Shown here piece by piece: positions 11,020-61,000 of a stretch of 64,000 nucleotides of DNA (positions within the stretch are counted from its first letter, which is position 1; each line of letters opens with the position of its first letter). The stretch is taken from positions 231,397-295,396 of the forward strand of contig JAQTTB010000001.1 of NCBI GenBank assembly GCA_028710985.1, written 5' to 3'. Position numbers and translations under genes: made by a program. The DNA comes from Patescibacteria group bacterium. GTDB lineage: Bacteria; Patescibacteriota; Patescibacteriia; JAHJFT01. The notes beneath the pieces were generated by a model that searched no databases, was not told the DNA's origin, and saw only the letters and a program-made list of their open reading frames with translations.

Positions 11020-11039
11020 CCTGCCTGCCGGCAGGCAGG
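11020..11039. repeat. 20-bp perfect palindrome CCTGCCTGCCGGCAGGCAGG (copy 1 of 4)
   Basis: Exact copies lie at 22348-22367 and 60981-61000, and a variant at 47295-47315. All are intergenic or at gene 3' ends. Confidence 0.85.
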
Positions 11040-11068
11040 TAAAACTTAAAATTTAAAATTTTTAATTT

Positions 11069-11129
11069 GGAGGAGTGGCCGACCCCGCGCAGCGGGGCCC
11101 TGCTTCGCGGGGGTGGCTGAAAGCGCCGC
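11069..11129 (+). pseudogene. degenerate tRNA-Ser 5' fragment (nt 1-14 plus a D-loop/anticodon-stem remnant) interrupted by a 32-bp GC hairpin
   Basis: GGAGGAGTGGCCGA is identical to the first 14 nt of the intact tRNA-Ser at 11387. GGCTGAAAGCGCCGC differs by 2 nt from GGTTGAAGGCGCCGC. The insertion ccccgcgcagcggggccctgcttcgcgggggt lies between them. Confidence 0.5.
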
Positions 11130-11139
11130 AATTATAAAA

Positions 11140-11385
11140 ATGTTCACAACCTATATCTTAAAAAGTTTAAAAAATGGTAAACATTACATTGGGCATACTA
11201 ATGATATGCCGGCGCGATTAGAACGGCATAACCAGGGAAGGGTTAAGTCAACAAAAAATGGACGCCCCTGGGAATTAATTTATTCAGAAATATTTAAAAC
11301 AAAATCGGAAGCTAATCGTCGGGAATTTGAAATAAAGAGTTATAAAGGCGGGATATTATTTAAAAAACTTTTCAAACTCATTTAA
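11140..11385 (+). CDS. GIY-YIG nuclease family protein (UPF0213-like)
   Basis: YILKSLKNGKHYIGHTNDMPARLERHNQG...KSEANRREFEIKSYKGG carries the GIY-YIG core with conserved Arg/Glu/Asn residues. The ORF ends 1 nt before the tRNA-Ser. Confidence 0.85.
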   Translation: MFTTYILKSLKNGKHYIGHTNDMPARLERHNQGRVKSTKNGRPWELIYSEIFKTKSEANRREFEIKSYKGGILFKKLFKLI

Positions 11386-11386
11386 C

Positions 11387-11476
11387 GGAGGAGTGGCCGA
11401 GTGGTTGAAGGCGCCGCTCTCGAAAAGCGGTATGCCCGAAAGGGTATCGTGAGTTCAAATCTCACCTCCTCCGCCA
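11387..11476 (+). tRNA. tRNA-Ser (anticodon CGA), long variable arm, CCA encoded
   Basis: GGAGGAG-TG-GCC-GAGTGGTTGAA-GGC-G-CCGCT-CTCGAAA-AGCGG-(18-nt variable arm)-GTGAG-TTCAAAT-CTCAC-CTCCTCC-G-CCA. Confidence 0.9.
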
Positions 11477-11487
11477 ACCAAAATATT

Positions 11488-11931
11488 ATGCAAATTTCAA
11501 AAAATGATGTCCAATACAATATATTGAATGAAGAATTTTTGCTTGCACAGCGGCAAATGGACAAATACGACCAGCTTTCAACTACCATTAAAACCTGGGC
11601 AGTTACGCTGTGGGTAGCCGCGTCCGGCTGGGTGTTCCAAACGGAAACGAAACAGGTCGCCCTCTTAGGAGCGCTGCTAGTACTCATCTTCTGGTTCTTT
11701 GACAGCTACAATAAAGTTTATCGTACCAACTACAAGAAACGCCGTGACGAAATCCAAAATGGCTTACAAATTCTTTTTTTCGGCCGTCCCTTACCCACGG
11801 ATTTTTTATCCCCCAACCTTCCGATTCATGACGAAAAAAATGTCGTTCGAAGCATGTTTCTTCTACACGTTGGATTGCCTTACGCAATACTTATCATCAT
11901 TTCACTTCTGATCTATGCTAATTTCAATTAA
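11488..11931 (+). CDS. small hypothetical membrane protein (3 predicted TM helices)
   Basis: The start is placed at MQISKNDV, just after the tRNA. The ORF-track version (11401) overlaps the tRNA. It is bounded by copies of the tRNA-Ser 3' end. Confidence 0.45.
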   Translation: MQISKNDVQYNILNEEFLLAQRQMDKYDQLSTTIKTWAVTLWVAASGWVFQTETKQVALLGALLVLIFWFFDSYNKVYRTNYKKRRDEIQNGLQILFFGRPLPTDFLSPNLPIHDEKNVVRSMFLLHVGLPYAILIIISLLIYANFN

Positions 11932-11954: not shown

Positions 11955-12033
11955 TCACCTCCTCCGCCAACCAAAATATTCAAAATTTTAAGTCGACGTA
12001 GCGGAGCGAAGTCGCTCTCACCTCCTCCGCCAA
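11955..12033 (+). repeat. two extra copies of the tRNA-Ser 3' end plus flank (att-like direct repeats)
   Basis: TCACCTCCTCCGCCAACCAAAATATT at 11955-11980 equals 11462-11487 (tRNA 3' end + CCA + 11 nt flank). A shorter copy, TCACCTCCTCCGCCAA, lies at 12018-12033. Confidence 0.75.
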
Positions 12034-12167
12034 ATTAACAAGTTAGAACCTAAGTAAAATAAGGGTATTTGGACAGCGAAAAGCCGATTTCGTCAGGAAG
12101 TCGGTTTTTTGTATTATTTTTTAACAGGGTGTACAATATAATCAATATATTTTAGTAAAGATAAATT

Positions 12168-12365
12168 ATGCCTACAATCAGTAAAAACATTCGCAAATTA
12201 AGAGAACAAAAAGGTATATCGCAAGATAGGCTTTCAAAACTGGCAAATATCTCTTTGAATACAATCGCAAAACTGGAACTCGACGAAACTCAAAATCCAA
12301 CCATTGAAACTTTGCAGAAAATTGCAAAAGCCCTAGATGTCAAAGTTGAGGATTTAATAAAATAA
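12168..12365 (+). CDS. XRE-family helix-turn-helix transcriptional regulator
   Basis: A 65-aa protein, IRKLREQKGISQDRLSKLANISLNTIAKLE, with a classic Cro/C1-type HTH. Confidence 0.75.
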   Translation: MPTISKNIRKLREQKGISQDRLSKLANISLNTIAKLELDETQNPTIETLQKIAKALDVKVEDLIK

Positions 12366-12369
12366 ATTT

Positions 12370-13488
12370 ATGGCCAGAGAAGCATCAATTAAAAATCTTA
12401 CAAATGCGAAAAGGGCAAAGAACGATGAGTTTTATACTCAGTACATCGATATTCAGAAAGAAATTGAAAAGTATTTAGATTACAACCCTAATACATTCCG
12501 AGCTAAGGTGGTGTATTGCAACTGCGACGATCCGTTCGAGAGCAATTTTTTTCGTTATTTTGTACTCAATTTCAACAAGCTTGGATTGCAACAGCTAATT
12601 ACAACGAGCTACAAACCATCGCCCGTCGCCAACACGCAACTGGGATTATTCGGTGATGACAAAACACTTGCAAAAACAAAAGGCCGTTCAAAGGTAACTG
12701 CCAATAAATTTATTATCAATGAAGTGAAAGATATAGACGGCGATGGAGAGTTCAATCTAAAAGATGTTGCCAAACAGTTAAAGGCAAACAAAAACAACGA
12801 ATGGATGCCCCTTGAGAAAGATGGTGACTTCAGAAGTCCCGAATGCATAGCATTACTGGAACAGTCTGATATCGCGGTAACCAATCCGCCGTTTAGTTTG
12901 TTTCGTGAGTATGTTAAACAACTTTTTGATTACCAAAAAAAGTTTTTGATTATTGGCAATATTAATTGCATAACTTACAAGGAGGTATTTCAAAAAATTA
13001 AAAATAATGAAATATGGCTTGGTAATGGAATGGGAAGATGGATTTCTGGTTTTATTGTACCTGAATCCTACAACTTGTACGGAACGGAGGCTCGGATAGA
13101 TGAAGATGGAAATAGAATTGTTGCCACCAATAATTGTTTGTGGCTTACCAATCTTGACCATGGTCGCCGTCACCAACCGTTGCCACTTATGACAATGAAA
13201 GAAAATTTGAAATACAGCAGACACAAAGAAATCAAAGGCAAAAAAGCGTATGAAAAATACGATAATTATGATGCGATAGAAGTATCTTTTACCGATGCGA
13301 TTCCAAGCGATTATAAAGGTGCAATGGGTGTGCCAATAAGTTTTTTGGATAAGTACAATCCTGAACAATTTGAGATATTAGGAATGGACGATCACAGGAT
13401 GCAATATCCTAATTGGAGAGGCAGAGGCCCTGACTTGAATGGAAAGCCCGCTTATAGAAGAGTTATCATCAGGCATAAGAAAAAATAA
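12370..13488 (+). CDS. N6-adenine DNA methyltransferase (NPPF motif IV; tentatively EcoRI-methylase-like family)
   Basis: DIAVTNPPF is the (D/N)PP(F/Y) catalytic motif. The N-terminal NDEFYTQ and [15 protein letters not shown] resemble the M.EcoRI family, but I am recalling this from memory and have not verified it. Confidence 0.75.
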
Positions 13489-13489
13489 T

Positions 13490-14659
13490 ATGAATACAAC
13501 TTTAAAAACCAATATCACTGTTAAAGAAATCTGCGACGGCTTTGTCTATAACGAACTTGAAGGCAAGGGTTTGTTTGGCTTGTCTGGCAAGCTCACTATT
13601 CAGCCGGAATATCAGCGAAATTATATTTATGCATCCGATGGCGGCAAAAGAGAGATGGCTGTAATTGAATCAGTCCTAAAAGAATATCCAATAGGATTGA
13701 TTTATTTCAATAAAGTTTCTACCGAAAACCTAGAAGTTTTAGACGGACAGCAACGCATCACAAGTCTCGGACGATTTATCACCGACAAATTTGCCATCAA
13801 GGACGAAAATGGCATGGAGCAATATTTTGGCGGTATGGCAAAAGACAAGCAAACCAAAATTTTGGAAACGAAACTTCTCATTTACGAGTGCGAGGGCACA
13901 GAAAGCCAGATAAAAGAATGGTTTAGGACCATAAATATTGCCGGCGTTCCGCTCAATAATCAAGAATTACTCAATGCCGTGTATTCTGGCCCATTCGTGA
14001 CTAGGGCTAAAGAGGAATTCAGTAATAGCCAAAACGCCAATATTCAAAAATGGAGTGCATATGTATCGGGTAGTGCAAACAGGCAGGAATTTTTGGAATG
14101 TGCTCTTGATTGGGTAAGCAGAGGCAATATCGGCGACTACATGAGCAAGCATCGCAAAGACAAAAACATCGATGTGTTGAAAAAATATTTCAACACAGTC
14201 ATTCATTGGGTATCTAGCGTATTTACCGATGTAGAAAGCGAAATGCGCGGGCTTAAATGGGGACGATTGTACGAGGAATATCACAAAGAGAAATATAATC
14301 CAACCAAAGTATCCGCTGAGGTGCGTGAGCTCTATGGTGACTTTTTTGTTAAAGATAAAAAGGGAATTTTTGAGTACATTTTAGGTGGTAAAAACGATAC
14401 AAAATTGCTTAATATTCACATTTTTGACGAACCAACTAAAAGAGCTATTTACGCAAAACAAACTAAGGAAGCTGAAACCAAAGAGAAATCAAACTGTCCA
14501 CATTGCGCTATTGGGCACGACGCTAATAAGGAAAAGATTTGGAGTTTCGGCGAAATGGAAGCGGATCATGTATCAGCGTGGAGCAAGAGTGGCGCGACTT
14601 CAGCGAAGAATTGTGAGATGTTGTGCAAAACCCACAATCGAGCGAAGGGAAATCGATAA
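13490..14659 (+). CDS. DUF262 (ParB-like, DGQQR) N-terminal domain fused to a C-terminal HNH (DUF1524-like) nuclease; GmrSD/SspE-like architecture
   Basis: [17 protein letters not shown] is the DUF262 signature. The C-terminus (CPHCAIGHD...[32 protein letters not shown]) is an HNH motif. The start is set at MNTTLK, 2 nt after the MTase stop. Confidence 0.8.
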
Positions 14660-14665
14660 AATAAT

Positions 14666-14860
14666 ATGGCAAATCAAACAGACAATAAAATAATGAGTGT
14701 GCCAGAGCAAATATTCGACCAGTTTCTAACGGAATTGGGAGAACAAAAAATACCGGAAGAAGTTATCGCTCGCTTAAGAAAAACTCTTGTAGACAATGGG
14801 CAGATCTCGGTTGATGCTCTCAAACAAGCATTGTTTTACAGTGATAGCACAGATGTATGA
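14666..14860 (+). CDS. small hypothetical protein (64 aa), translationally coupled to the downstream ATPase
   Basis: Its stop overlaps the ATG of the next gene (ATGA at 14857-14860). It is acidic with no known domain. Confidence 0.4.
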   Translation: MANQTDNKIMSVPEQIFDQFLTELGEQKIPEEVIARLRKTLVDNGQISVDALKQALFYSDSTDV

Positions 14861-17331
14861 TTAAGATTGACACAATAAAAATTGAAGAGTTTCGTGGCAT
14901 ACGCAACTTGACACTGGAGTTTAACGGAAAAAATTACGCTGTATGCGGACCAAACGGAACAGGTAAAAGTGGAGTGGTCGATGCTCTAGAGTTTGCTCTT
15001 ACAGGGAATATATCGCGCTTGTCTGGCGAAGGTATGGGTAATGTTTCCGTCAAAGAACACGCACCACATGTCGATAGTAAAAATAATCCCGAAAAAGCTC
15101 GCATAAACATTACATTTAAAATACCAACACTTGAAAATAAGCAAGTGACGCTCGCGAGGACAGTCAAAAATTCTACAACGCCAAGTATAAATCCATCATC
15201 ACCGGAAATACTTGAGATACTTTCACAATTTGATGGGCATCCTGAGTTTGTATTATCTCGACGCGAGATTATTCGGTATGTCATTTCAAAACCGGGCGAC
15301 AGATCAGCGGAAGTTCAGGCACTATTGCGTCTCGATAAAATTGGCGATTTACGGAGCAGTCTACTGACCATATCAAACACATACAGCAAAGAGTCAAAGG
15401 ATTCAAAAAAAGTTCAGGATCAAGCAAGCGAAAGTTTAGCACAAGGTTTGGAAATAACTGATTTGGTTAAAGCAAAGATTTTAGAAGCGGTAAATACAAG
15501 ACGCACTGTTCTCGGCTTAACGTCACTTACGGATTTAACAGCCACGACAGCTTTAAATGATGGATTAGAAACAAGTGTAAAATCTCCGGCTGTGCCGAAA
15601 GTGAATAAGGTTTCGGCAACAGCTGATCTAAAGACTTGGCGAGAGGTATCGCAAAAAATGACGGCTGAAAGTGTGCGGTCGGAGTGTTCAGAGTTGAAAG
15701 ATCAATTAACTGTTTTGAGTAGTAATCCTATTGTTACTGAGAGTGTAACGCGCGAGAAATTTTTACGCTCGGCGATAGATTTTGTAACGGAAGAAGCTTG
15801 TCCCGTTTGTGATACAAAATGGGACATATCTACATTGCAGGGTATTATCCGCTCGAAACTTGAAGGATTTGAAGAAATCACAAAGATGCGCGCTAGCCTT
15901 GAAAATCGGTTGGAACCAATTATAACTCTTGTCGACTCGCTTGATAACGCAACCGCTTTAGCTGAAAAATTAACGAAAGTCTTGACAACTGAACATACGG
16001 CAGGTCTTGCAGCTTATCGAGCAACATTATCGTCATACCGCAAGGCATTGAAAGATTTTTTGCCATTGACGGAAGCTATACCAGCAATTGTAAATATCAC
16101 AGAAATTCCTGCTGACGTAACATCTGCAATTGAAGCGATAGAAAAAGCTGTCGCAATTATTCCAGAGCCAACACAACAAGATGCGGCACGAGATTTTATT
16201 GTGCGAGCACAAGATCGCCTTGAGGCATACAGAAAAGTAGCTCGCGAAGCAGATAAGGCAAAGCAGCGGGCTGATTTATCAAAGAAGGTTTACGACACAT
16301 ATGTAGATATCAGCACCAAAGCGTTGGAGGGTGTTTATAAAGATGTAGAAGGCGAGTTCTCTAAACTGTATCGCTCGGTGAACGGCGAAGACGAGAATAG
16401 TTTTACAGCAAAGCTGGTTCCGTCTATTGGCAAATTAGGTTTTGATGTTGATTTTTATGGACGAGGGCATTTCCCTCCTGGCGCGTATCACAGTGAGGGA
16501 CACCAAGACGCGATGGGGCTTTGTTTGTATCTAGCACTAATGAGAAAACTCCAAGGCACTAATTTCAGATTTGCCGTACTCGACGATGTGCTCATGTCTG
16601 TTGATTCGAATCACCGCCGAGAAGTGTGTAATCTTCTTAAGCAACAATTTCAAGACACTCAATTTATCCTTACAACGCATGATGAAGTATGGTTAAAACA
16701 AATGACGACTGTTGGGCTTATCGCATCAGGAAACGCAACACGCTTTAGCAATTGGACTCCCGACCATGGTCCTGCGGAATGGAAAACGCGCGACGTGTGG
16801 ACTGAAATAGACACTGCTTTGAATGCAAACGATGTTCAATCAGCGGCCAGTCGCCTTCGGTATTATCTGGAGTATGTTTTTAGAGAAGTATGTGACAGCT
16901 TGCGAGCACAAGTTGAGTTTAAGGGTGATGGACGCTATGGGCTTGGGGATACCCTAGCTCCGGCCGTGGCACGCTTTCGTAAGCTTATGGTTGAAGGTAA
17001 AGAGGTTGCGGAATCACGGAGCCAAACTGATGTTGCAAAAGCTCTCCAATTGCAAGAAAAGAACCTTGCAGATTCTTTAGTCGCGACCAACGCTGAACAA
17101 TGGCAGGTTAATCCGGCTATTCACTATAACGAATGGGCGAATCTTTCGGTTAATGATTTTAATCCCGTGGTTGCTACTTTTCGTAATTTGGTGCAAAAAT
17201 TCTTTTGTGAAAAGCCAGAGTGTAGTAGTTTTGTATATTTAACTACGACGCCACCAAAAACGCCGGATGCAGTTCGCTGTAATTGTGGATTGATAAATAT
17301 AAACCTAAAGAAACCGGCGCAGAAAGATTAA
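14857..17331 (+). CDS. SMC/Rad50-like ABC ATPase (AAA_15/AAA_23-type head, long coiled coil, putative CxxC zinc hook)
   Basis: The N-terminal Walker A is GPNGTGKSGVVDALEFAL. The C-terminal Walker B and D-loop are FAVLDDVLMSVD and ILTTHDE. About 450 aa of predicted coiled coil lie between them, carrying CPVCDTKW near the middle. A C-terminal Cys cluster (CEKPECSS...VRCNCG) follows. Confidence 0.8.
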   Translation: MIKIDTIKIEEFRGIRNLTLEFNGKNYAVCGPNGTGKSGVVDALEFALTGNISRLSGEGMGNVSVKEHAPHVDSKNNPEKARINITFKIPTLENKQVTLARTVKNSTTPSINPSSPEILEILSQFDGHPEFVLSRREIIRYVISKPGDRSAEVQALLRLDKIGDLRSSLLTISNTYSKESKDSKKVQDQASESLAQGLEITDLVKAKILEAVNTRRTVLGLTSLTDLTATTALNDGLETSVKSPAVPKVNKVSATADLKTWREVSQKMTAESVRSECSELKDQLTVLSSNPIVTESVTREKFLRSAIDFVTEEACPVCDTKWDISTLQGIIRSKLEGFEEITKMRASLENRLEPIITLVDSLDNATALAEKLTKVLTTEHTAGLAAYRATLSSYRKALKDFLPLTEAIPAIVNITEIPADVTSAIEAIEKAVAIIPEPTQQDAARDFIVRAQDRLEAYRKVAREADKAKQRADLSKKVYDTYVDISTKALEGVYKDVEGEFSKLYRSVNGEDENSFTAKLVPSIGKLGFDVDFYGRGHFPPGAYHSEGHQDAMGLCLYLALMRKLQGTNFRFAVLDDVLMSVDSNHRREVCNLLKQQFQDTQFILTTHDEVWLKQMTTVGLIASGNATRFSNWTPDHGPAEWKTRDVWTEIDTALNANDVQSAASRLRYYLEYVFREVCDSLRAQVEFKGDGRYGLGDTLAPAVARFRKLMVEGKEVAESRSQTDVAKALQLQEKNLADSLVATNAEQWQVNPAIHYNEWANLSVNDFNPVVATFRNLVQKFFCEKPECSSFVYLTTTPPKTPDAVRCNCGLININLKKPAQKD

Positions 17332-17441
17332 ATCTGCTCGGATAAACCTAGCAATTGTTGTTTACTAAAAAGAGAGCCGCCCGCGTCAGCGGACGGGCTT
17401 GTATGCGCGCTAATAGGGATTTTATATAGAATAATCCACCT

Positions 17442-17612
17442 CATCTTTGCCTTTGACCGACTTAGGTTTAGGCGTCTCAAACCACTCCGGATGAACTTCG
17501 TAGATAGCCCTTAATTCCTGTATACTTTTATCAAGATCCTCGAATTTGAGCCATTTTCTTGGTTCAAAGTTCCGGAGATCGTGCCCGCCAAATTATAAAA
17601 AACTAATTACCA
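17442..17612 (-). pseudogene. start-less ORF remnant (...RNFEPRKWLKFEDLDKSIQELRAIYEVHPEWFETPKPKSVKGKDEVDYSI*), a possible gene fragment at the island boundary
   Basis: The open reading frame on the minus strand has no start codon and runs into the 5' region of the 17616 gene. It is too short for the ORF track. Confidence 0.3.
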
Positions 17613-17615
17613 AAT

Positions 17616-18101
17616 ATGTCAGATCAAGAAATTAAATCAACCGGCTGTTGCGAGCCGTTCAATCCCGAACCGTGGCATGAAAAAGAAATTGTCTGGAAAG
17701 ATAAAATTTTTGTCAAAGACTATGTTACGAGTTTTTTGCACATTCCGCTCAATATGGGGAAAAAAATCATAAAAAATATAGCGCTGATTGAAAAAGCCGG
17801 CGCTAAATCCCCGTATCAGCTCATGCTCTGCGACGAAAAATCTCTTTGGGGTTCTGACATTTATATTGATGTTGCGAAAGATGTCCCCGGCGCGCAGATG
17901 GCAAAAATTTCCGGCACTTTCCTAACGAAAGTTTTTGAAGGTCCGTATCAAAACGCCGGCAAATGGGCGGTTGAAATGAATGAATATGTGAAAAACAAAG
18001 ACAAAGAAATTAAAAAATTATATTTTTCTTACACCACCTGCCCAAAGTGCGCCAAGGCTTACGGCAAAAACTACGTGGTGCTCTTCGCGCAGATTGACTA
18101 A
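17616..18101 (+). CDS. hypothetical protein with N-terminal CC and C-terminal CPKC Cys pairs
   Basis: A 161-aa ORF with no confident family assignment. Confidence 0.5.
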   Translation: MSDQEIKSTGCCEPFNPEPWHEKEIVWKDKIFVKDYVTSFLHIPLNMGKKIIKNIALIEKAGAKSPYQLMLCDEKSLWGSDIYIDVAKDVPGAQMAKISGTFLTKVFEGPYQNAGKWAVEMNEYVKNKDKEIKKLYFSYTTCPKCAKAYGKNYVVLFAQID

Positions 18102-18182
18102 AGAACATACAGGACAGCATGCAAATGCAGGAATTTATTCGTCTTTTATCGGACGATTTTTTATTTGCGCTAAACCACGCCC

Positions 18183-18220
18183 TTGACAATATGTAAGGTA
18201 TACATTACAATAAGTAATGT
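18183..18220 (+). promoter_or_regulatory. sigma70-type promoter with an overlapping palindromic operator (ACATTAC-N5-GTAATGT)
   Basis: TTGACA, a 17-nt spacer, then TACAAT. The inverted repeat acattacAATAAgtaatgt overlaps the -10 and sits upstream of the DUF2178-XRE pair. Confidence 0.5.
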
Positions 18221-18238
18221 AAACTTAACTTAATCAAT

Positions 18239-18640
18239 ATGAACTACAAACAATTCAAAAGAATGCGCCTATTAACCGCCTCGTTTGTTTCGGCCACGGT
18301 GGCGATTGCGGTTGTTTATAATAACATTGTCTTGGCCCTGGCCGGAGTCGTAATCGGCCTGCTTTTTCTCCTCCTGGTCAGAAAAAAAACAAATGCGGTT
18401 ATAATTGACGAGAGAATTCAAAAAATTGGCGACCGCGCGGCTCGCCTTACTTACACGACTTTAACCCTCGCCACTGCTTTTCTTTCTTTGATTTTCATCG
18501 TGATCGGCCGGCGGATCGGCGAGGCAAATTACGAAACCCTGGGAATAATATTAAGTTATATTACCCTGTTCAGCCTTGCCCTTTATTCGCTTTCATACAA
18601 ATATTTCAGCAAAAAATATGGAGAAACAGACGACGAATAA
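18239..18640 (+). CDS. DUF2178-like small membrane protein (4 TM), usual partner of an XRE regulator
   Basis: A 133-aa protein with four hydrophobic helices, followed immediately by an HTH gene. This is a conserved two-gene arrangement. Confidence 0.55.
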   Translation: MNYKQFKRMRLLTASFVSATVAIAVVYNNIVLALAGVVIGLLFLLLVRKKTNAVIIDERIQKIGDRAARLTYTTLTLATAFLSLIFIVIGRRIGEANYETLGIILSYITLFSLALYSLSYKYFSKKYGETDDE

Positions 18641-18818
18641 AATTAAAGTTTTCCGAGCAATGCGCGAAATGACTCAGGAACAACTGGCTGATAAAGTTGG
18701 CGTTACTCGTCAAACCATAATCGCGATTGAAAAAAATAAATACGTTCCGTCCCTGGAGCTGGCATTTAAAATCGCCGGAGTTTTTGGCGAGACGATTGAG
18801 AACGTCTTTCAACGTTAA
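18618..18818 (+). CDS. XRE-family HTH transcriptional regulator
   Basis: MEKQTTNKIKVFRAMREMTQEQLADKVGVTRQTIIAIEKNKYVPSLELAFKIAGVF. The start is moved to the internal ATG. Confidence 0.8.
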   Translation: MEKQTTNKIKVFRAMREMTQEQLADKVGVTRQTIIAIEKNKYVPSLELAFKIAGVFGETIENVFQR

Positions 18819-18884
18819 GTATTCTTACCTCTATTGAAAAATTTTTTGCCCTCTGATAACATCCCCGTAGAGAAGGAGGATGCC

Positions 18885-19643
18885 ATGACAACGTCCGCAA
18901 ATCTTGTTCTTATCCCCGGCATCGACACCTATACCCTGCTTGACCTTTTAAAGTTAGCCGCACGTCATAAGGGCCTCGAGCTTTGGTGGAACGCTTCAAA
19001 AACCTTTTTCAAGCCGATCAAAAAATATACGCTCGATGACCGGCTCCTCGATATTCTTGAATCGCGCAACATCAAGCGAGAGCCCCGCCCCGATCTTTCC
19101 TTCACCTTGGTCGACCAGAACCCCCAGGAGATAACTCCCGGACACCGCCCGAGCAACTACTGGAGCTTTAAGCTACTCAAGGGCAGTAACTACAACTATG
19201 ATCTCCTGATCAGTCTGAGCGTCCGCTACGAAGTCAGCACCAAAAAACAGGGCATTATCCTTTTGCCCCTAGCGATTGGAACTGTCCTTTCTCCGGCAGA
19301 CCACTTGCCAAACCTCCGCATGTTCCAAGCGCTGGTCGAAAGCGACAGGGACGCACCAGCCATCGCTAAAGAAATCGCCGGAAACGCGAGCGGCCTAATC
19401 GTCACCTGGAGCGATCTTGGTCTCGGGGGCATTCGTCGGCTCACTGAGCTCTTCCACGAGTTCACGAATCGGAACGTCGCTATCGAAAACCTCAGTCGGC
19501 AGGATGGTGTTTTCAGCCCCACCCCGCACCCCTACCAACAACAACTTACGGATGAACTGTTTATTACCGAACTGGCGCAACTCAGAATTCTTAAAGCATG
19601 GCGGAATCAACTCGAAGCCTATCGCAACAGCCACGCCCCATAA
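18885..19643 (+). CDS. hypothetical protein
   Basis: GAAGGAGG precedes the ATG at 18885 (MTTSANLVLIPG...). There is no known domain. Confidence 0.45.
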   Translation: MTTSANLVLIPGIDTYTLLDLLKLAARHKGLELWWNASKTFFKPIKKYTLDDRLLDILESRNIKREPRPDLSFTLVDQNPQEITPGHRPSNYWSFKLLKGSNYNYDLLISLSVRYEVSTKKQGIILLPLAIGTVLSPADHLPNLRMFQALVESDRDAPAIAKEIAGNASGLIVTWSDLGLGGIRRLTELFHEFTNRNVAIENLSRQDGVFSPTPHPYQQQLTDELFITELAQLRILKAWRNQLEAYRNSHAP

Positions 19644-19743
19644 GACACGCTTGCTCAAGGGAGTTCGTGAAAACGACTCCTTTTTTTTATGATATAATCA
19701 CTGCAGAGCTTTTTCAGCCATATTAATAATAATTAATTAACGC

Positions 19744-22347: not shown

Positions 22348-22440
22348 CCTGCCTGCCGGCAGGCAGGTTCCATTATTCATGATTCCTGATTCTCGTGTTG
22401 CTGGAATCATGTTTTTTTATTATAATAGTAGTGTATTTTT

Positions 22441-25576: not shown

Positions 25577-25578
25577 AT

Positions 25579-26214: not shown

Positions 26215-26215
26215 T

Positions 26216-26602: not shown

Positions 26603-26631
26603 ATTTAATAATTAATTACTTAATAAAAAGT

Positions 26632-27015: not shown

Positions 27016-27022
27016 ATAAATT

Positions 27023-27424: not shown

Positions 27425-27452
27425 AAATCACATAATCCTTAATTAATAAATT

Positions 27453-42417: not shown

Positions 42418-42511
42418 ACATTTAAAATTTAAAATTGAATTAAAATATTATTGAAAAATTTTCCGCCCGAGGCGGATGCGCCTCTGGCGCAAAAATTGCC
42501 CGAAGGGCTGG

Positions 42512-42621
42512 TACGCCCAGTAGGAATCGAACCTACATATCCAGCTTACCTGCCCGCCAGTGCCTCTACCCCCAGTAGGAATCGAACCTACATATCCAGC
42601 TTACCTGCCCGCCAGTGCCTC
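42512..42621 (-). repeat. two tandem 55-bp units, each a tRNA-Arg 3' half (anticodon-stem 3' strand to acceptor end) plus a 24-nt flank (CCTGCCCGCCAGTGCCTCTAC-containing)
   Basis: cccagtaggaatcgaacctacatatccagcttacctgcccgccagtgcctctac is repeated. The outermost copy ends in the acceptor TGGGCGT rather than TGGGGGT. Confidence 0.7.
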
Positions 42622-42693: not shown

Positions 42694-42712
42694 ACAGGCC
42701 ATGGCAGGCGGG

Positions 42713-42747: not shown

Positions 42748-42758
42748 ATAAATTTTTT

Positions 42759-42830
42759 TGCCCCCGAGAGGAATTGAACCTCTATTTAGAGCTTAGGAGT
42801 CTCCCGTTCTATCCGTTGAACTACAGGGGC
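42759..42830 (-). tRNA. tRNA-Arg (anticodon CCT)
   Basis: The minus-strand read is GCCCCTG-TA-GTTC-AACGGATA-GAAC-G-GGAGA-CTCCTAA-GCTCT-AAAT-AGAGG-TTCAATT-CCTCT-CGGGGGC-A. There is one A-G mismatch at the base of the anticodon stem. Confidence 0.6.
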
Positions 42831-42839
42831 ATGATTCAA

Positions 42840-43070
42840 CTATCGCCTTGACAATCTTTTTACTTTTCTTTTTTTAATAAACCTTTCTCTGCGATAGGCC
42901 TCTTCAATACTATCAAATTCTTCGATTCTGGCAATCTTCCATGGCTTAAATGCCGAAGTATATCGGGATAATCCATTATTATGCTGAGCCAATCTTCTTT
43001 TTATATTATTTGTAACTCCAACATAATAACTGCCATTTTTTAAACTTTCTAGAATATATAGAAAATGCAT
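42840..43070 (-). CDS. GIY-YIG nuclease family protein (UPF0213-like)
   Basis: MHFLYILESLKNGSYYVGVTNNIKRRLAQHNNG...EEAYRRERFIKK. The ORF ends 9 nt before the tRNA-Arg(CCT) 5' end, on the same strand. Confidence 0.8.
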   Translation of the reverse strand: MHFLYILESLKNGSYYVGVTNNIKRRLAQHNNGLSRYTSAFKPWKIARIEEFDSIEEAYRRERFIKKRKVKRLSRR

Positions 43071-43083
43071 CTTTAAAATATTA

Positions 43084-43190
43084 GAAGACCTCTATTGTAT
43101 CCATTGAATCCCGACGTTCCGCCGCAGGCGGAAGTCGGGATCCCGACCCCCCGACCCCGCGGGCGTCGGGGCGTCGGGACTACAGGGGCG
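43084..43190 (-). pseudogene. degenerate tRNA-Arg 5' fragment (GCCCCTGTAGT ... TTCAATGGATA ... CTTCTAA) split by a ~70-bp GC hairpin insertion, immediately upstream of the GIY-YIG start
   Basis: The minus-strand read is CGCCCCTGTAGT-[cccgacgcc...gtcggga hairpins]-TTCAATGGATACAATAGAGGTCTTCTAATATTTTAAAG-ATG(GIY-YIG). This is the same layout as at 11069-11140. Confidence 0.45.
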
Positions 43191-46668: not shown

Positions 46669-46747
46669 GTGAATCAGTTAATCAGTGAATCGGGCAAAAC
46701 GCCTTAATATAAACCTGATTAACCGATTACCTGATTCACTGATTAAC
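46669..46747. repeat. imperfect inverted repeat of TGAATC/GATTCA units (ggtgaatcagttaatcagtgaatcgg ... ccgattacctgattcactgattaac) upstream of the NYN gene
   Basis: The arms share the 15-nt core GTTAATCAGTGAATC in inverted orientation, about 30 nt apart. Confidence 0.55.
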
Positions 46748-46756
46748 ATTAAACAT

Positions 46757-47347
46757 ATGATTATACGACCAGATCAGCGAATCGGCGTTTTCATTGATGT
46801 GCAGAATCTTTATTACTCGGCGCGCAATCTTTTCGGCGCCAAAGTGAATTTTGGAAATATCGTTACCACCGCGGTCGGCGGACGCAAACTCATCCGGGCA
46901 ATCGCCTATGTGGTGAGCACGCCGTCCGGCGAAGAAAAACCATTCTTTGAAGCCTTATATCATCTGGGCATTGAAACCCGCGAAAAAGAATTGCAGGAAT
47001 TTTTCGGCGGCGCGAAAAAAGCCGACTGGGATGTCGGCCTCGCGGTTGACGCCATCCGCATCGCCGAACTTCTTGACGTCGTGGTGCTGGTTTCCGGCGA
47101 CGGCGATTACTGCCCGCTCGTGGAATATCTCAAGGGCCGCGGCCGCCAGGTTGAAATCGCGGCTTTCGGCGAAACAACTTCATCCCGCCTCAAAGAAATG
47201 GCCGACGAATTCATTGACTTGAGCAAAGACCCCGGCAACTTCCTGATCCGCCCGAAATCCGCAAATCGTCGCAATCAAAATCCAAAATCCAAAACCTGCC
47301 TGCCGGCAGGCAAGGTCCAAAATCCAAAATTTAATAATAAATATTAA
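46757..47347 (+). CDS. NYN-domain (LabA/DUF88-like, PIN-related) protein
   Basis: RIGVFIDVQNLYYSAR...VVLVSGDGDYCPLVEYL carries the GDGDY signature. The start is set at MIIRPDQ. The C-terminal tail reads through the CCTGCC palindrome. Confidence 0.75.
   Translation: MIIRPDQRIGVFIDVQNLYYSARNLFGAKVNFGNIVTTAVGGRKLIRAIAYVVSTPSGEEKPFFEALYHLGIETREKELQEFFGGAKKADWDVGLAVDAIRIAELLDVVVLVSGDGDYCPLVEYLKGRGRQVEIAAFGETTSSRLKEMADEFIDLSKDPGNFLIRPKSANRRNQNPKSKTCLPAGKVQNPKFNNKY
47295..47315. repeat. variant copy of the 20-bp palindrome (CCTGCCTGCCGGCAGGCAAGG), flanked by direct repeats TCCAAAATCCAAAA
   Basis: The 14-bp direct repeats lie at 47281-47294 and 47316-47329. Confidence 0.8.
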
Positions 47348-51984: not shown

Positions 51985-52466
51985 GGCTAATCTATGCCGC
52001 TTTCCTTGGTCTGGGTTTTTTGCTCGATCGGGCATTAAAATATCTGGCAATGCGAGGGCTCCCACAAGAGGAGCTTTTTATTATCCCAAAAATCTTGAGC
52101 TTTACTCTTTATGAAAACCGCGGCATGGCATTCGGCATCGCGGTGCCACATCTGCCGCTCGTCGCCACCGGCGCCGTACTTCTCGTCCTTCTCTTTGCCA
52201 TGATTATTTATTCTGTAAAAATGAACCGCTCGATCTGGCTCTACGCTTCGTGCGCCATCTTCGCTGGCGGCTTAAGCAACTTCATTGACCGCGCTCTCTG
52301 TGACGCGACTATTGACTATCTCTACCTCCGGCCGTACTCTTTTATCAATATCGCAGATATAATGATCGTGGGCGGCTGCCTCATTTCTATTGCCGCCTGC
52401 CCGCCAGGCCTTGCCAGGCATGGCAGGCGGGCTCTGCATAATGGCAAAAAATTACATGTCCAATAA
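51945..52466 (+). CDS. lspA: lipoprotein signal peptidase II
   Basis: ENRGMAFGI and FINIADIMIVGG match the LspA conserved boxes. The start is uncertain (a non-ATG start is possible). The C-terminal end reads through a GC palindrome. Confidence 0.6.
   Translation: MHRMQKSPDPRTLRLIYAAFLGLGFLLDRALKYLAMRGLPQEELFIIPKILSFTLYENRGMAFGIAVPHLPLVATGAVLLVLLFAMIIYSVKMNRSIWLYASCAIFAGGLSNFIDRALCDATIDYLYLRPYSFINIADIMIVGGCLISIAACPPGLARHGRRALHNGKKLHVQ
52397..52432. repeat. GC-rich near-palindrome CCTGCCCGCCAGG...CATGGCAGGCGGG, related to the tRNA-Arg flank motifs and to the CCTGCC palindrome family
   Basis: CCTGCCCGCCAG also occurs 3x in the tRNA-Arg repeat units. CATGGCAGGCGGG also occurs at 42700-42712. 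Confidence 0.65.
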
Positions 52467-53999: not shown

Positions 54000-54039
54000 G
54001 GTATTAGGTACTTGGTATAAAATCGTAAAATTTTTATTA
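54000..54039. repeat. left arm of an imperfect ~35-bp inverted repeat flanking the four-helix-bundle gene
   Basis: ggtgttaggttttaggtatcaggtattaggtacttggtat. Confidence 0.6.
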
Positions 54040-54428
54040 TGGAGGAAAATAAAATAGTATCATATAAAGATCTGATTATTTGGCAAAAATCGATTGAACT
54101 AGTCGTTGAGATATATAAAATAACCGCCAGTTTTCCCAAAAATGAAACTTTTGGGCTCGTATCGCAAATGCGCAGAAACGCGGTTTCTATTCCTTCCAAT
54201 ATTGCCGAGGGACGCAGCCGCGGAACAAGAAAAGACTTTCGTCAATTTTTAATAATTGCATACGGATCAGCCGCTGAGATGGAAACGCAAATTATTATTG
54301 TAAAAAAATTAGCTTTTGGAAAGGAAATAAATTTCGAGCATTCGGAAAAACTTCTAAATGAGATCGTCAGAATGCTAAATCGGGCAATCCACACCCTCAA
54401 AACCCAATACCTAGTACCTAAAACCTAG
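54039..54428 (+). CDS. four-helix-bundle protein (TIGR02436 / 23S rRNA intervening-sequence protein family)
   Basis: YKDLIIWQKSIELVVEIYKITASFPKNETFGLVSQMRRNAVSIPSNIAEG is the characteristic N-terminal helix pair. Confidence 0.7.
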   Translation: MEENKIVSYKDLIIWQKSIELVVEIYKITASFPKNETFGLVSQMRRNAVSIPSNIAEGRSRGTRKDFRQFLIIAYGSAAEMETQIIIVKKLAFGKEINFEHSEKLLNEIVRMLNRAIHTLKTQYLVPKT

Positions 54429-57794: not shown

Positions 57795-59798
57795 ATGTCT
57801 GTCCCACTCCTAGTTTCGATTCTCGCGCCAATTGTCGCCATTATCTACGGCTGCATTCTCATCGGCTGGATCCTTAAACTCCCCCAAGGCGACGGTAAAA
57901 TGAAGGGTATTGCCCTGGCAATCCAGGAAGGCGCCCGCGCCTATTTAAACCGCCAATATAAGGTAATCGCCGCCATTGGCGCGGTGATTTTTGTCCTGCT
58001 CTGGATCGGGCTCGGCGCCAAGGTCGCGCTCGGCTTCATGGTCGGCGCCGCGCTTTCGGCCGCTGCCGGCTATATCGGCATGAACGTTTCGGTTCGCGCC
58101 AATGTCCGCACCGCCGAAGCCGCGAAGCGCGGCATGTCCGCCGCCCTTCAGGTAGCGGTCCGCGGTGGCTCAGTCACCGGCCTTCTCGTAGTCGGGCTCG
58201 CGCTTTTGGGCGTTGCCGTATTTTTTGCCGCAACCGGCGATCTCAAGGCCCTGATTGGGCTCGGATTTGGCGGCAGTTTAATTTCCGTGTTTGCCCGCCT
58301 CGGCGGCGGCATCTATACAAAAGCCGCGGATGTGGGCGCCGACTTAGTGGGAAAAGTTGAAGCCGGCATACCGGAAGACGATCCCCGAAATCCGGCCGTG
58401 ATTGCCGACAACGTCGGCGATAATGTCGGCGACTGCGCCGGCATGGCGGCCGATCTTTTTGAAACTTACGCCGTTACCGCGGTTGCCGCCATGCTTCTCG
58501 GCTCCTTGCTTTTCCCCACCTCGCCGAACATTGTTCTCTATCCGCTTGTGATCGGCGCGGTTTCCATCATCGCCTCAATCATCGGCACATTCGCCATCCG
58601 CCTCGGCAAAAGCCAGAACATCATGGCCGCGCTTTATCGCGGGCTCGCGGTTGCCGGAGTCGTTGCCGCCGCTGCTTTCTACCCGGTCACCCGCTGGATG
58701 CTTGCCTCAAGCTTCAACGATCCGGCGGAAATCAATAATATATTTTTCGCTTCGCTCATCGGGCTTGCAGTGACCGCGCTCATGGTTATCATTACCGATT
58801 ATTACACATCAACAAAATATAATCCCGTGAAAAAAATCGCCAAGGCAAGCGAGACCGGCCATGGCACAAACATCATCGCCGGACTCGGCATCGGCATGAA
58901 ATCAACCGCCCTGCCGGTGATTGTCATCGCCCTGGGCATCTGGGCTGCTTTTGCCTTTGCCGGGCTCTACGGCATCGCCATTGCCGCGATGAGCATGCTT
59001 TCCCTCACCGGAATTATTATTGCAATTGATGCCTACGGCCCGATTACGGATAATGCCGGCGGCATCGCCGAAATGGCCGAACTGCCGGAAGAGGTTCGCA
59101 ATATCACCGATCCGCTTGATGCGGTCGGCAACACCACCAAGGCCGTGACCAAGGGATACGCCATTGGTTCGGCCGGACTGGCCGCGCTCGTGCTCTTTGC
59201 CGCATACGCCGAAGAGCTCACCACCGGCGGACGCGAATTCCTGTTCCAGCTCTCCGATTACCGCGTGATCATCGGCCTCTTTATCGGCGGACTCCTGCCG
59301 TATCTTTTCGGCGCCTTTGCCATGGAGGCCGTGGGTAAAACCGCGGGCAAGGTAGTTGAAGAAGTTCGCCGCCAGTTCCGCGAAATCAAAGGCATTATGG
59401 AAGGAACGGCCAAACCCGATTACGCAAAATGCGTTGATATCGTGACCCGCGGCGCCCTGCGCCAGATGATTGTGCCGGCTCTGATTCCGGTTCTCGCGCC
59501 GATTGTCATCGGATTTGTTCTCGGACCCGAAGCCTTGGGCGGACTCTTGATCGGCTCAATCGTCACCGGCCTTTTTATCGCCATTTCCATGACCACCGGC
59601 GGCGCGGCCTGGGACAACGCAAAAAAATATATTGAAAAAGGAAACTACGGCGGCAAAGGCTCGCTCGCCCATCAGGCGGCCGTCACCGGCGACACGGTCG
59701 GCGACCCGTACAAAGACACCGCCGGCCCGGCCATCAACCCGATGATTAAGATACTGAACATCGTCGCGCTTCTCATCATCGGATTCATGGTGAAATAA
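57795..59798 (+). CDS. hppA: membrane-bound proton-translocating pyrophosphatase (V-type H+-PPase)
   Basis: [20 protein letters not shown] and [21 protein letters not shown] are the H+-PPase signature motifs. There are about 16 TM segments. Confidence 0.9.
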
Positions 59799-59810
59799 AA
59801 ATAATAAAAA

Positions 59811-59842
59811 TAACCGCTCCATAATACCGGGGCGGTTTTTTG
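59811..59842 (+). terminator. rho-independent terminator after hppA
   Basis: AACCGCtccataataccggGGCGGTTtttt. Confidence 0.6.
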
Positions 59843-59884
59843 TTAATCGTGTACTTTCATAAAACAAGCTTTTAGTGTTAAAAT

Positions 59885-60151
59885 ATGGCTGTATTCCATA
59901 AATTAATACAAATGAAAAACAGACTTATATTCATAATTAAACTGGTTTTATCAGCATTTCTTTCCCTGATATGGTTTTTTCTCATTCAGGGAGAATATGA
60001 AATGATTACAAAACCCGAGCTGCAAAATGATTTCCCGATCATTAAGGGTGTTTATGCGGTTTACTTTCTTGGCTTTATTTTATTCGCCATCGGCGGAATT
60101 ATTGTTTATTTATTATTTTCAATCAAAAAAAATAAAATATGGAAGAAATAA
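59885..60151 (+). CDS. small hypothetical membrane protein (2 TM)
   Basis: An 88-aa ORF. Confidence 0.4.
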   Translation: MAVFHKLIQMKNRLIFIIKLVLSAFLSLIWFFLIQGEYEMITKPELQNDFPIIKGVYAVYFLGFILFAIGGIIVYLLFSIKKNKIWKK

Positions 60152-60825
60152 TTTTTCAAAAATTAAAAGACGCGGCGGAAAAAGAAATCTCAAATATGAC
60201 GGACCCTTCGCACGACATGGGCCATGTCCTGCGAGTATATAATCTCGCCCTGACTATCGCGAAAAATGAAAGTGCGGTTGACTTGGACGTTTTGCAAGCC
60301 GCGGCGCTCCTGCACGATATCGGCGGATACAAAGAGCTCAACGACCCGAGCGGCAATACCGATCACGCAATAGTCAGCGCGGAAATGGCCGTACCGATTC
60401 TAAAAAACCTGAGTTTTTCCGCCGAAAAAATCAAGCATGCGCAGGACTGCATTATTTCCCATCGCTACAAAACCGAACACAAACCCCAAACCATTGAAGC
60501 CAAAATACTATTTGACGCCGACAAACTTGATGCCACCGGCGCGATCGGCATGGCGCGCGGATTTACCTGGGTTGGAAAAAATAATGCAAATATTTTTAAA
60601 AAAGTTGATATCAACGAATATATTAAAGAAAACATGGGCGGCAAAATAAACGGCCGGATTCATGACAAAACCAAACACAGTCCGCAGATTGAATTTGAAA
60701 CAAAACATAAATTTTTAATTGACAAACTATTCACTCAAACCGCGAAAAATATCTGCAGTGAGAGAATAACATATATGAAAAATTTTTATGGCCGCCTGGA
60801 ACGTGAAATAAACGGCGAGCTGTAG
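60139..60825 (+). CDS. HD-domain phosphohydrolase
   Basis: HDMGHVLRV is the H...HD start. LLHDIGG and FDADKLD supply the conserved D. Confidence 0.7.
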   Translation: MEEIIFQKLKDAAEKEISNMTDPSHDMGHVLRVYNLALTIAKNESAVDLDVLQAAALLHDIGGYKELNDPSGNTDHAIVSAEMAVPILKNLSFSAEKIKHAQDCIISHRYKTEHKPQTIEAKILFDADKLDATGAIGMARGFTWVGKNNANIFKKVDINEYIKENMGGKINGRIHDKTKHSPQIEFETKHKFLIDKLFTQTAKNICSERITYMKNFYGRLEREINGEL

Positions 60826-60980
60826 AAATATTGTTTCGCTAACAACATTTCTACCCGCGCCTCCTCCAATGGATCCGCCTCCGGCGGAAAAGCCGCGGGT
60901 TTTATTTTATTAGAAGCCCGCTTACCCTGTAATCTTGTCTCGGGGTAAGCGGGCAATATGAATAAATATGTCGGCGGAGC

Positions 60981-61000
60981 CCTGCCTGCCGGCAGGCAGG
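60981..61000. repeat. 20-bp perfect palindrome CCTGCCTGCCGGCAGGCAGG (copy 4)
   Basis: An exact copy, downstream of the HD gene. Confidence 0.85.

Follow-up and report, generated by a model that had tools for sequence, protein, structure and literature searches.

A 20-bp perfect palindrome in Patescibacteria, other bacterial phyla and phages: a candidate mobile element of minimal size

How did the same 20-bp palindrome come to lie at four places in a 64-kb stretch of DNA from a member of the Patescibacteria? The whole of this stretch is referred to below as the window. It contains a perfect palindrome, CCTGCCTGCCGGCAGGCAGG (PAL), in three exact copies and one copy with a single mismatch. A preliminary description had placed all four correctly (Table 1), and no match was found in 100 dinucleotide-preserving shuffles of the window, i.e., no copy is expected by chance. 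In a scan of the window for GC-rich inverted repeats, no perfect palindrome other than PAL was present more than once. Its predicted fold as single-stranded DNA is a hairpin (-8 kcal/mol) with a stem of 8 bp and the loop CCGG. Three roles had been offered for this sequence, i.e., a transcription terminator or attenuator, a protein-binding site and a minimal mobile element, and the last of these fits best. In this study, we describe the distribution, insertion sites and decay of PAL, and propose that it is probably a selfish 20-bp insertion element that is mobilised in trans and spreads horizontally.

Exact PAL was found in at least 120 stretches of a collection with one genome per species, in 35 stretches of viral contigs and in at least 120 stretches of metagenome contigs. 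The number expected by chance in 596 Gb is about 0.5 (596e9 x 4^-20, our own arithmetic from the stated collection size). Taxa were tallied from the record titles of the 120 genome matches listed, and the counts, made by us, are approximate. These matches comprised ~36 Patescibacteria, ~38 Bacteroidota, 10 Omnitrophota, 8 Planctomycetota, Verrucomicrobiota or PVC (Planctomycetes-Verrucomicrobia-Chlamydiae) bacteria, 12 entries labelled Gammaproteobacteria or Pseudomonadota, 6 labelled 'delta', Bdellovibrionales or Thermodesulfobacteriota, 3 Thermodesulfovibrionales, 1 each of Chloroflexi, Elusimicrobia and Ignavibacteria, and 4 unclassified entries. The identical sequence is thereby carried by about ten phyla among the matches listed. 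Among the 120, seven come from cultured isolates, all Bacteroidota, and one from a single cell; examples of the cultured carriers are Winogradskyella echinorum KCTC 22026, Flagellimonas yonaguniensis, Longitalea luteola and Aquiflexum lacus. Some labels look wrong, namely those of L104, L106 and other 'uncultured Gammaproteobacteria' metagenome-assembled genomes (MAGs) of the third-party annotation section (L-numbers are labels of retrieved loci). The GatB protein of L104 is closest to proteins of Candidatus Shapirobacteria, and at least one Gammaproteobacteria label is therefore doubtful.

The identity across phyla is specific to this sequence. Two control palindromes of the same composition, one with swapped arms (GGCAGGCAGGCCTGCCTGCC) and the other a compensated double mutant (CCTGCCAGCCGGCTGGCAGG), each gave no match in the viral collection, versus 35 for PAL. 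It is therefore the PAL sequence itself that has been propagated, and the pattern is not a mere effect of a stable hairpin or of composition. Neither the 20-mer nor the peptides LPAGRQ, PACRQAG and CLPAGR occurred in any paper of the searched literature, which is not proof that PAL is undescribed. The literature on extragenic palindromes, miniature transposable elements and GIY-YIG genes supplied background only.

PAL has no fixed target. Its flanks are unrelated among 126, and later 297, sites, and only a weak junction preference was seen, for A|T (34 of 126 sites) or C|C(G), where the bar marks the place of PAL. The palindrome extends 1 bp or more beyond its 20 bp at 36% of sites and 2 bp or more at 11%. 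These values are near chance, and a larger conserved element around the 20-mer was dropped on this ground. The best view of the junctions is given by tRNA genes. At 12 sites, PAL interrupts a tRNA 5' fragment, and an intact paralog in the same locus is continuous over the junction (in L037, for example, GGTAGA-PAL-GCAGCGGC versus intact GGTAGAGCAGCGGC). None of the 12 has a target-site duplication or a loss of target, and because the paralog is uninterrupted, these are precise 20-bp insertions with neither duplication nor deletion. One remnant, in L257, carries two PALs. We also considered targeting of hairpin loops. In many single cases PAL sits at the apex of a pre-existing hairpin, but there is no general enrichment: the junction falls in a predicted loop (stem of at least 5 bp) at 11% of 82 non-coding sites versus 14% of 854 non-coding controls, and as a general rule this candidate was rejected.

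Copies of PAL also turn over. Nested copies, i.e., PAL within PAL, occur in L018, L021, L042 and L052, and the outer copy is always split 11/9. Degenerate copies occur in the 1.24 Mb of retrieved sequence, where 15 have one mismatch, 21 have two and 18 have three, with none in shuffled sequence. In the viral contig L155 (3916-4135), a tandem array contains at least ten 21-nt units, CCATGCCTACCGGCAGGCAGG, each a two-mismatch PAL variant plus one base; a unit of this length equals seven codons. No solo arm was found in the 1.24 Mb, each isolated 10-mer arm being part of a degenerate full palindrome. The length of the arms is fixed at 2.5 CCTG units, with two full units in each arm at 169 sites and a (2,3) arrangement at one. 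Taken together, the nesting, the point-mutated variants, the array, the absence of solo arms and the fixed arms indicate that PAL has been inserted again and again and that its copies then decayed neutrally. We rejected a telomerase-like mechanism, in which (CCTG)n would be added to the two ends of a break, as it predicts arms of variable length. A separate case is that of L128, where paralogous repeats at 3829 and 3923 carry either the 20-mer or a 16-mer, CCTGCCTGCAGGCAGG, that lacks the central CCGG; this pair therefore reflects a loop deletion inside a larger repeat.

Where copies survive is subject to selective filtering. Of the PAL sites, 60% lie outside open reading frames (ORFs) of at least 120 aa versus 17% of random positions in the same loci, and 20% lie deep inside ORFs versus 60% of random positions. 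In a metagenome replicate, 43% of sites were in ORFs versus 84% of bases. The proposal that PAL is a dispersed repeat favouring non-coding DNA and gene ends was thus borne out, and so was the expectation that it is not confined to the contig of the window. Still, 13% of 297 sites are deep inside long ORFs, several of which are genuine genes. None of the frames of PAL contains a stop codon (as read from its sequence), and the frame continues through it in recognisable genes: FtsK (L013), RfbB (L021, where a nested double PAL occupies 42 nt), GatB (L104) and GT39-like membrane proteins (L043, L071). Of 39 sites that lie deep in ORFs with 250 codons or more, 22 use the LPAGRQ frame. Copy 3 of the window fits this in-frame survival. 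It falls in the final 17 codons of an NYN-domain gene flanked by rpsO and pnp and is read as TCLPAGK, in a tail that is missing from the nearest NYN relatives (74-79% identity in the alignment).

The GatB insertion can be compared with an ortholog of 95% amino-acid identity that lacks it (ETDD-LPAGRQ-VVYTPL versus ETDD----GQTVYTPL). At the DNA level, GATGA-PAL-TGGTTTATACT corresponds to GATGA-CGGTCAAAC-TGTCTATACT, a net gain of 12 nt. In coding DNA, therefore, only net lengths that keep the frame survive. Relative to the tRNA paralogs and to this one ortholog, PAL has been gained recently.

The tRNA sites are part of a broader pattern. tRNA genes lie within 400 nt of PAL in 28 of 78 cases versus 13.4 expected. 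We observed a recurrent cassette, in which a tRNA 5' remnant with a GC-rich hairpin in its D arm is followed by a 76-90-aa GIY-YIG gene and then by an intact tRNA. It is present twice in the window (11069-11476 and 42758-43189) and in L037, L039, L106, L118, L153, L207, L213, L236 and L257, and its hosts include members of the candidate phyla radiation (CPR), Bacteroidota, a viral contig and metagenome contigs. The cassette resembles a mobile minigene that has tRNA genes as its target and rebuilds them through partial duplication; no description of it was found in the searched literature. In L037, L106, L118, L153, L207, L236 and L257, the hairpin is PAL.

The GIY-YIG minigene is the only strongly recurrent family among ORFs within 300 nt of PAL (12 of 276 loci). 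In the first sample, 7 of 12 GIY-YIG domains were less than 150 nt from PAL versus 0.8 expected by relocation within the locus (P<2e-4), and in an independent metagenome sample the count was 5 of 10 versus 1.8 expected (P=0.008). This association may be causal, if the nuclease makes breaks or recognises PAL, or indirect, if insertion of the minigene yields dead tRNA pieces in which PAL is harmless. A PAL-specific clade of GIY-YIG proteins was considered and rejected, the PAL-adjacent proteins being only marginally more alike than others. The second most recurrent neighbours are ParB-like genes (five loci: L001, L048, L147, L244 and L274). In these cases PAL is within ~30 nt of the gene or inside its end; the loci are unrelated and the recurrence could be due to chance. 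In addition, the viral contig L146 has PAL (2284-2303) in the variable loop of an otherwise normal phage tRNA-Met, which forms a 92-nt tRNA with a long extra arm and is still called by ARAGORN; a truncated relative is present in L123. This may be a tolerated or even functional insertion.

From these data, we infer that PAL is actively mobilised, and the following scheme would account for its behavior. A sequence-specific activity acting in trans would make new copies of PAL itself, as opposed to duplicating the surrounding DNA, and these would land almost anywhere, with no fixed target sequence and, as a rule, no target-site duplication. Selection would then purge harmful copies. The survivors would be found in spacers, just past stop codons, in dispensable protein tails, in tolerant loops where the frame is kept, and in dead tRNA fragments, with the four copies of the window among them. 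The element, or the function that mobilises it, would move horizontally between phyla and be carried by phages. The enzyme, most simply a homodimer matching the two-fold symmetry of the site, would recognise PAL and either excise and rejoin it or copy it into breaks. The tRNA-linked, horizontally mobile GIY-YIG mini-nucleases would be the best candidates for this enzyme or for a role in making the breaks. Junctions vary by 1 nt in either direction and 8 nt were lost in gatB, which suggests break repair over the staggered cut of a transposase. Horizontal exchange of the activity or of the element is in line with gene transfer reported among Patescibacteria, Omnitrophota and Bacteroidota, GIY-YIG genes included (PMC12455944).

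Several observations weigh against this proposal. No mobilising enzyme was identified, and no transposase, RAYT or recombinase family recurs near PAL (297 sites) or in the window; a search for a mobiliser in the multi-copy viral contig L142 gave only Pfam matches to phage structural and lysis proteins. Ongoing movement would be deduced from paralogs and a single ortholog pair rather than from polymorphism among strains of one species, and copy number was counted within the 64-kb window (four copies) rather than genome-wide. The change in GatB is +12 nt and not +20, so the junctions are not always clean. We know of no precedent for a mechanism that would insert a bare 20-bp duplex bluntly and without duplication. 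As for the candidate nuclease, more than 90% of PAL sites have no nearby GIY-YIG gene. The PAL-adjacent GIY-YIG proteins share only 35-46% identity and are therefore a poor fit for a group that would all recognise one invariant 20-mer. GIY-YIG cassettes, including both of those in the window, also carry other, unrelated GC-rich hairpins.

A bolder version of the proposal is tentative, and we would sooner doubt it than adopt it. Here, PAL would be the smallest mobile DNA known, a bare palindrome of 20 bp free of cargo, flanking duplication and lineage limits. It would be copied, or cut and pasted, into breaks by a sequence-specific dimeric enzyme that crosses at least ten phyla and phages and is perhaps the 76-90-aa GIY-YIG protein that colonises tRNA genes. 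Together, PAL and the minigenes would act as a two-part selfish system, reshaping tRNA loci and supplying essential proteins with LPAGRQ-type peptides.

The same tRNA loci suggest an alternative that we consider unlikely, i.e., that PAL is a target or scar of the GIY-YIG minigenes. The nuclease would recognise or cut PAL and the minigene would home beside it, or PAL would be filler placed at nuclease breaks; as filler, it would destroy the cleavage site in the tRNA remnant and so protect the cassette. PAL is indeed found 20-62 nt upstream of the ORF, inside the tRNA 5' remnant, in eight independent loci, and the adjacency is significant in both samples. Cassettes that lack PAL hold another GC-rich hairpin at the same D-arm position (11083-11112 and 43110-43178 in the window, and L039), and in L060 PAL appears to lie at the 5' boundary of a GIY-YIG domain within a putative type I restriction specificity (HsdS-like) gene. 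However, the few loci with a GIY-YIG gene within 300 nt and the distance of three of the four window copies from both minigenes are not expected of such a target. The association can also be indirect, since insertion creates the dead tRNA fragments in which PAL survives. Finally, the proteins are too divergent for one invariant 20-mer, and the template of the filler is left unexplained.

Flanking repeats raise a second alternative, in which PAL consists of the joined 10-bp terminal inverted repeats (TIRs; CCTGCCTGCC and GGCAGGCAGG) of a conventional insertion sequence (IS). It would be an excision footprint, or an extreme miniature inverted-repeat transposable element (MITE), mobilised by the transposase of the parent. 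The two perfect 10-bp inverted arms are compatible with this idea, as is a minority of sites with abutting direct repeats. Only 7 of 166 sites have such repeats with a length of 7 nt or more (control 0.13%). In five of the seven cases the length is exactly 7 nt, often within heptamer arrays, as at copy 3 of the window, where PAL sits between 14-nt TCCAAAATCCAAAA repeats that are two units each of a TCCAAAA heptamer run. Direct-repeat cases were noted in L045, L080, L082, L101 and L140 (7 nt), in L124 (8 nt), and in L130 and the window at 47281-47329 (14 nt). They could be occasional target duplications, hairpin-provoked slippage, or traces of repeated insertion and loss. The 14-bp repeats had been taken for a target-site duplication in the preliminary description. 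The repeats are real, but duplication as a rule does not hold: it was ruled out by the 12 sites with an empty paralog, and the 7-bp class is rare. In addition, neither solo arms nor arm pairs with a long interior were found in the 1.24 Mb, which led us to reject a transposon with a long interior or solo TIRs, and no transposase recurs in the neighborhood. An IS origin of PAL is therefore improbable.

We give equally little weight to a third alternative, a cis element that benefits the host as a terminator or attenuator, as an mRNA-stabilising hairpin or as the operator of a conserved dimeric protein. The stable 8-bp stem with its CCGG loop and the preference for gene ends and spacers would fit such a role. 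Exact conservation and the absence of compensated variants are what would be expected of a protein-binding site. However, no T tract is present on either side of PAL. In the flank profile (126 sites, both sides), T is raised only at outward positions 1 (104 of 252) and 3 (91 of 252), and it amounts to 52-77 of 252 at all other positions from 2 to 15. In a lenient terminator scan of copies 1, 2 and 4, copy 1 passed on the minus strand only, copy 4 passed weakly and copy 2 failed, i.e., two of the four window copies pass, and one of these two lies on the strand opposite to the upstream gene. The terminator or attenuator role proposed earlier thus finds no support in these data. All-against-all clustering of neighboring ORFs gave no regulated gene family, only the GIY-YIG and ParB-like genes described above. 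PAL is also found inside the coding sequences of FtsK, GatB and RfbB, in dead tRNA fragments, in itself and in a phage tRNA. It is absent from the orthologous position in near relatives; the nearest (~80% amino-acid identity) lack it, at a divergence too high for base-level comparison.

A technical artefact, such as an adapter, a linker or an assembler-made palindrome, is very hard to credit: a contaminating synthetic oligonucleotide could place a fixed short palindrome in many unrelated assemblies, but gene order is intact over the copies (rpsO-NYN-pnp, gatB, ftsK), which avoid coding DNA, keep frame, mutate, nest and form arrays, and which come from isolates, a single-cell genome and MAGs of many laboratories (some assemblies being apparently long-read, judging by contig names only), and PAL matches no adapter known to us.

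Table 1. Copies of PAL and associated features in the window
Feature	Position	Strand	Context
PAL copy 1 (exact)	11020..11039	.	Intergenic, AT-rich; 30 nt upstream of tRNA-Ser 5' remnant, 100 nt upstream of GIY-YIG minigene
tRNA-Ser 5' remnant (positions 1 to ~31)	11069..11129	+	Compared with intact tRNA-Ser 11387-11476
GIY-YIG minigene	11140..11385	+	Pfam PF01541, E=1e-16; wedged between tRNA-Ser remnant and intact tRNA-Ser 11387-11476
PAL copy 2 (exact)	22348..22367	.	Abuts TGA stop of LOG/SLOG gene 21013-22347; 73 nt before NTP-transferase gene
E2-type arm CCTGCCCGCCAGTGCCTC	42549..42566	+	Joins tRNA-Arg(TCT) 3' halves; second copy 42604-42620
Opposite E2-type arm ACAGGCCATGGCAGGCGGG	42694..42712	+	Between inner intact tRNA-Arg(TCT) 42621-42693 and outer 5' half 42713-42747
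Second GIY-YIG minigene	42840..43070	-	PF01541, E=2.9e-18; between tRNA-Arg-like 5' remnant and tRNA-Arg(CCT) 42758-42831
tRNA-Arg-like 5' remnant	43078..43189	-	69-nt GC-rich hairpin insert 43110-43178 in D arm
Left TCCAAAATCCAAAA repeat (two TCCAAAA heptamers)	47281..47294	+	Abuts PAL copy 3
PAL copy 3 (1-nt variant G19A, CCTGCCTGCCGGCAGGCAAG)	47295..47314	.	In variable C-terminal tail of NYN-domain gene 46685-47347
Right TCCAAAATCCAAAA repeat	47316..47329	+	One base (G47315) beyond PAL copy 3
E2, 36-39-nt imperfect hairpin CCGCCTGCCCGCCAGGCCTTGCCAGGCATGGCAGGCGG	52393..52431	+	C-terminal tail of lspA, just before comM; -17.8 kcal/mol
PAL copy 4 (exact)	60981..61000	.	Intergenic, HD-domain gene 60139-60825 to ORF 61129-62634; 156 nt after HD-domain gene

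The window also contains 17 half-site matches to the PAL arm versus 3.2 expected. The related half-motifs that had been reported are present as one-mismatch half-sites (42549, 42604, 42703, 52396 and 52422). The sequences CCTGCCCGCC and GGCAGGCGGG, however, are not copies of the 20-mer; they belong to a separate, local 36-nt hairpin family, which we designate E2. The near-palindrome noted earlier between lspA and comM is the E2 hairpin of Table 1. E2 and PAL have only the GCCTGCC/GGCAGGC core in common and show the same habits (a protein tail, a tRNA loop), and homology between them is possible. No E2 arms were found in the other retrieved loci.

Split E2 arms bracket an intact tRNA-Arg(TCT) that lies inside the anticodon loop of an older, broken tRNA-Arg(TCT). 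This mosaic (42495-42750, minus strand) runs from the outer 5' half (42713-42747) through a GC-rich arm, the inner tRNA (42621-42693), an arm, a 3' half and a further arm to the outer 3' half (42509-42548), and the 3' half plus linker is repeated 2.7 times (period 55, 98% identity). The inner tRNA is complete and differs in its acceptor stem, and the outer halves match the single ancestral gene of L159. The arms that follow the 5' half and precede the 3' halves are mutually complementary. The arrangement is reminiscent of the split tRNA genes found in Nanoarchaeum, but the present one is bacterial and its parts lie in cis. In L159, a relative of the window organism, the order is Band7, tRNA-Arg(TCT), tRNA-Arg(CCT) and integrase, with no minigene, remnants or GC-rich hairpins, and the complex tRNA-Arg region of the window is therefore derived. 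Rfam identified only tRNAs in the window.

Both GIY-YIG minigenes of the window encode 76-90-aa proteins that consist of the catalytic domain only, and the one at 42840-43070 also matches the Pfam family T5orf172. The tRNA-Arg-like remnant beside it has the same architecture as the PAL-bearing remnants of other genomes. In the tRNA-Ser remnant, the D loop is broken by an insert of 30 nt (11083-11112), a GC-rich hairpin distinct from PAL. The AT-rich string TTTAAAATTGAATTAAAAT directly precedes copy 1 (10999-11019) and returns at 42427-42446, on the border of the tRNA-Arg mosaic. The tRNA-linked cassettes may share it as a promoter, a terminator or a boundary sequence. At copy 2, the palindrome is extended to 22 bp (A...T). 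A Logan contig matches 6,956 bp of the window, the variant copy 3 included, and the exact S15 protein of the window was found in one other contig only, from the same organism.

A Pfam search of 50 window ORFs detected ordinary CPR housekeeping genes, with no transposase, RAYT or HUH enzyme among them. A low-GC island at 12000-20000 (0.39-0.45 versus ~0.50), directly downstream of tRNA-Ser, contains genes for an EcoRI-type adenine methylase (12370-13488), a GmrSD-N/HNH nuclease (13439-14659) and an SMC/AAA ATPase (14857-17331), and is probably a defence island integrated at the tRNA. Five successive paralogous ORFs at 24698-27854 carry a T4SS-pilin domain (PF18895). A free-standing small gene at 54039-54428 encodes a '23S rRNA intervening-sequence protein' (bAvd-like four-helix bundle, PF05635); genes of this type are another small-gene family scattered through the same kinds of genomes.

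Active insertion of PAL, if true, would reduce the minimum known size of mobile genetic elements, and a single 20-bp sequence would cross phyla as far apart as Patescibacteria, Bacteroidota and Planctomycetota and enter phages. The activity that recognises it would have 20-bp specificity and would insert DNA almost seamlessly and without duplication, properties of interest to genome engineering. PAL marks insertions in the essential genes gatB and ftsK. It can serve to trace how uncultured ultra-small bacteria and their neighbors exchange DNA horizontally, and it points to the tRNA-linked GIY-YIG cassettes that leave dead tRNA halves behind. The cultured Bacteroidota carriers make hypotheses about PAL testable.

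How does PAL compare with known elements? Several classes can be set apart readily. Uptake sequences, such as the DNA uptake sequences (DUS) of Neisseria and the uptake signal sequences (USS) of Pasteurellaceae, are likewise short words (10-12 nt), often in inverted pairs downstream of genes. They differ in being lineage-specific, present at ~1 per kb, frequent as single copies, and kept by uptake bias rather than inserted as a unit, whereas PAL occurs at 4 per 64 kb, has no solo 10-mer arms and crosses phyla. The palindrome-associated transposable elements (PATEs) of the IS200/IS605 type share the lack of duplication with PAL, but they have two different subterminal hairpins and a fixed 4-5-nt 5' target; in PAL one hairpin is the whole element and no fixed flanking tetranucleotide is found. 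Free-standing GIY-YIG homing endonucleases of phage tRNA clusters (T4 SegB, the T5orf172 family) sit between tRNA genes, as the minigenes do. Seg proteins have DNA-binding domains and ~200 aa, and the minigenes of the window are limited to 76-90 aa and the catalytic domain. We know of no palindromic passenger described for Seg genes.

The resemblance to repetitive extragenic palindromes (REPs) and their RAYTs is closer, and PAL had been described as belonging to a REP/MITE-like family. REPs are short (20-40 bp), GC-rich, multi-copy palindromes that are mostly extragenic and non-coding, make no duplication and are presumably mobilised in trans. One of their ends has a conserved tetranucleotide, GTAG or CGTC (PMC3733652). 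They are also imperfect, species- or genus-specific, usually paired as REPINs (REP doublets forming hairpins), and flank a RAYT, an IS200/IS605-like Y1 transposase. PAL is perfect and, at 20 bp, within the size range. It has no such tag, starting with CCTG and ending with CAGG, and no conserved flank tetranucleotide (126 sites). It is identical across phyla and phages, it also occurs inside genes, and no Y1_Tnp match was found among the 50 window ORFs. Membership in the REPs is therefore not upheld. Nor is PAL a classical MITE. MITEs have internal sequence, a typical total length below 500 bp, TIRs related to those of a parent IS and, when young, flanking duplications (PMC10969869). PAL shares with them a non-autonomous nature, hairpin formation, inverted-repeat ends, a preference for AT-rich spacers and the possibility of in-frame fusions. 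Its TIRs are such only trivially, as two perfect halves, and with 20 bp, no interior, no duplication at the 12 verifiable sites and no parent IS found near PAL or in the window, it departs from that class.

The Rickettsia palindromic elements (RPEs) are selfish palindromic repeats that, like PAL, survive as in-frame insertions in protein genes, and they are also reported in RNA genes. PAL has 20 bp, adds 4-7 codons and crosses phyla; RPEs are longer (100-150 bp; ~150 bp in one account), are restricted to Rickettsia, and the peptide encoded by each of their families is longer (PMC10969869). A further parallel is offered by organelles. The mobile GC clusters in mitochondria of yeast and other fungi are short GC-rich palindromes in AT-rich spacers that nest, occur in frame in var1 and are often near endonuclease ORFs and tRNA genes. 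They are 30-60 bp long, fall into several sequence classes, are organelle-specific and have short target repeats, whereas PAL is present in bacteria, both free-living and symbiotic, and in phages. Thus, PAL resembles REPs, MITEs, RPEs and mitochondrial GC clusters in kind and fails the defining tests of the first two. What separates it from all four is its occurrence in different phyla as one invariant 20-mer.

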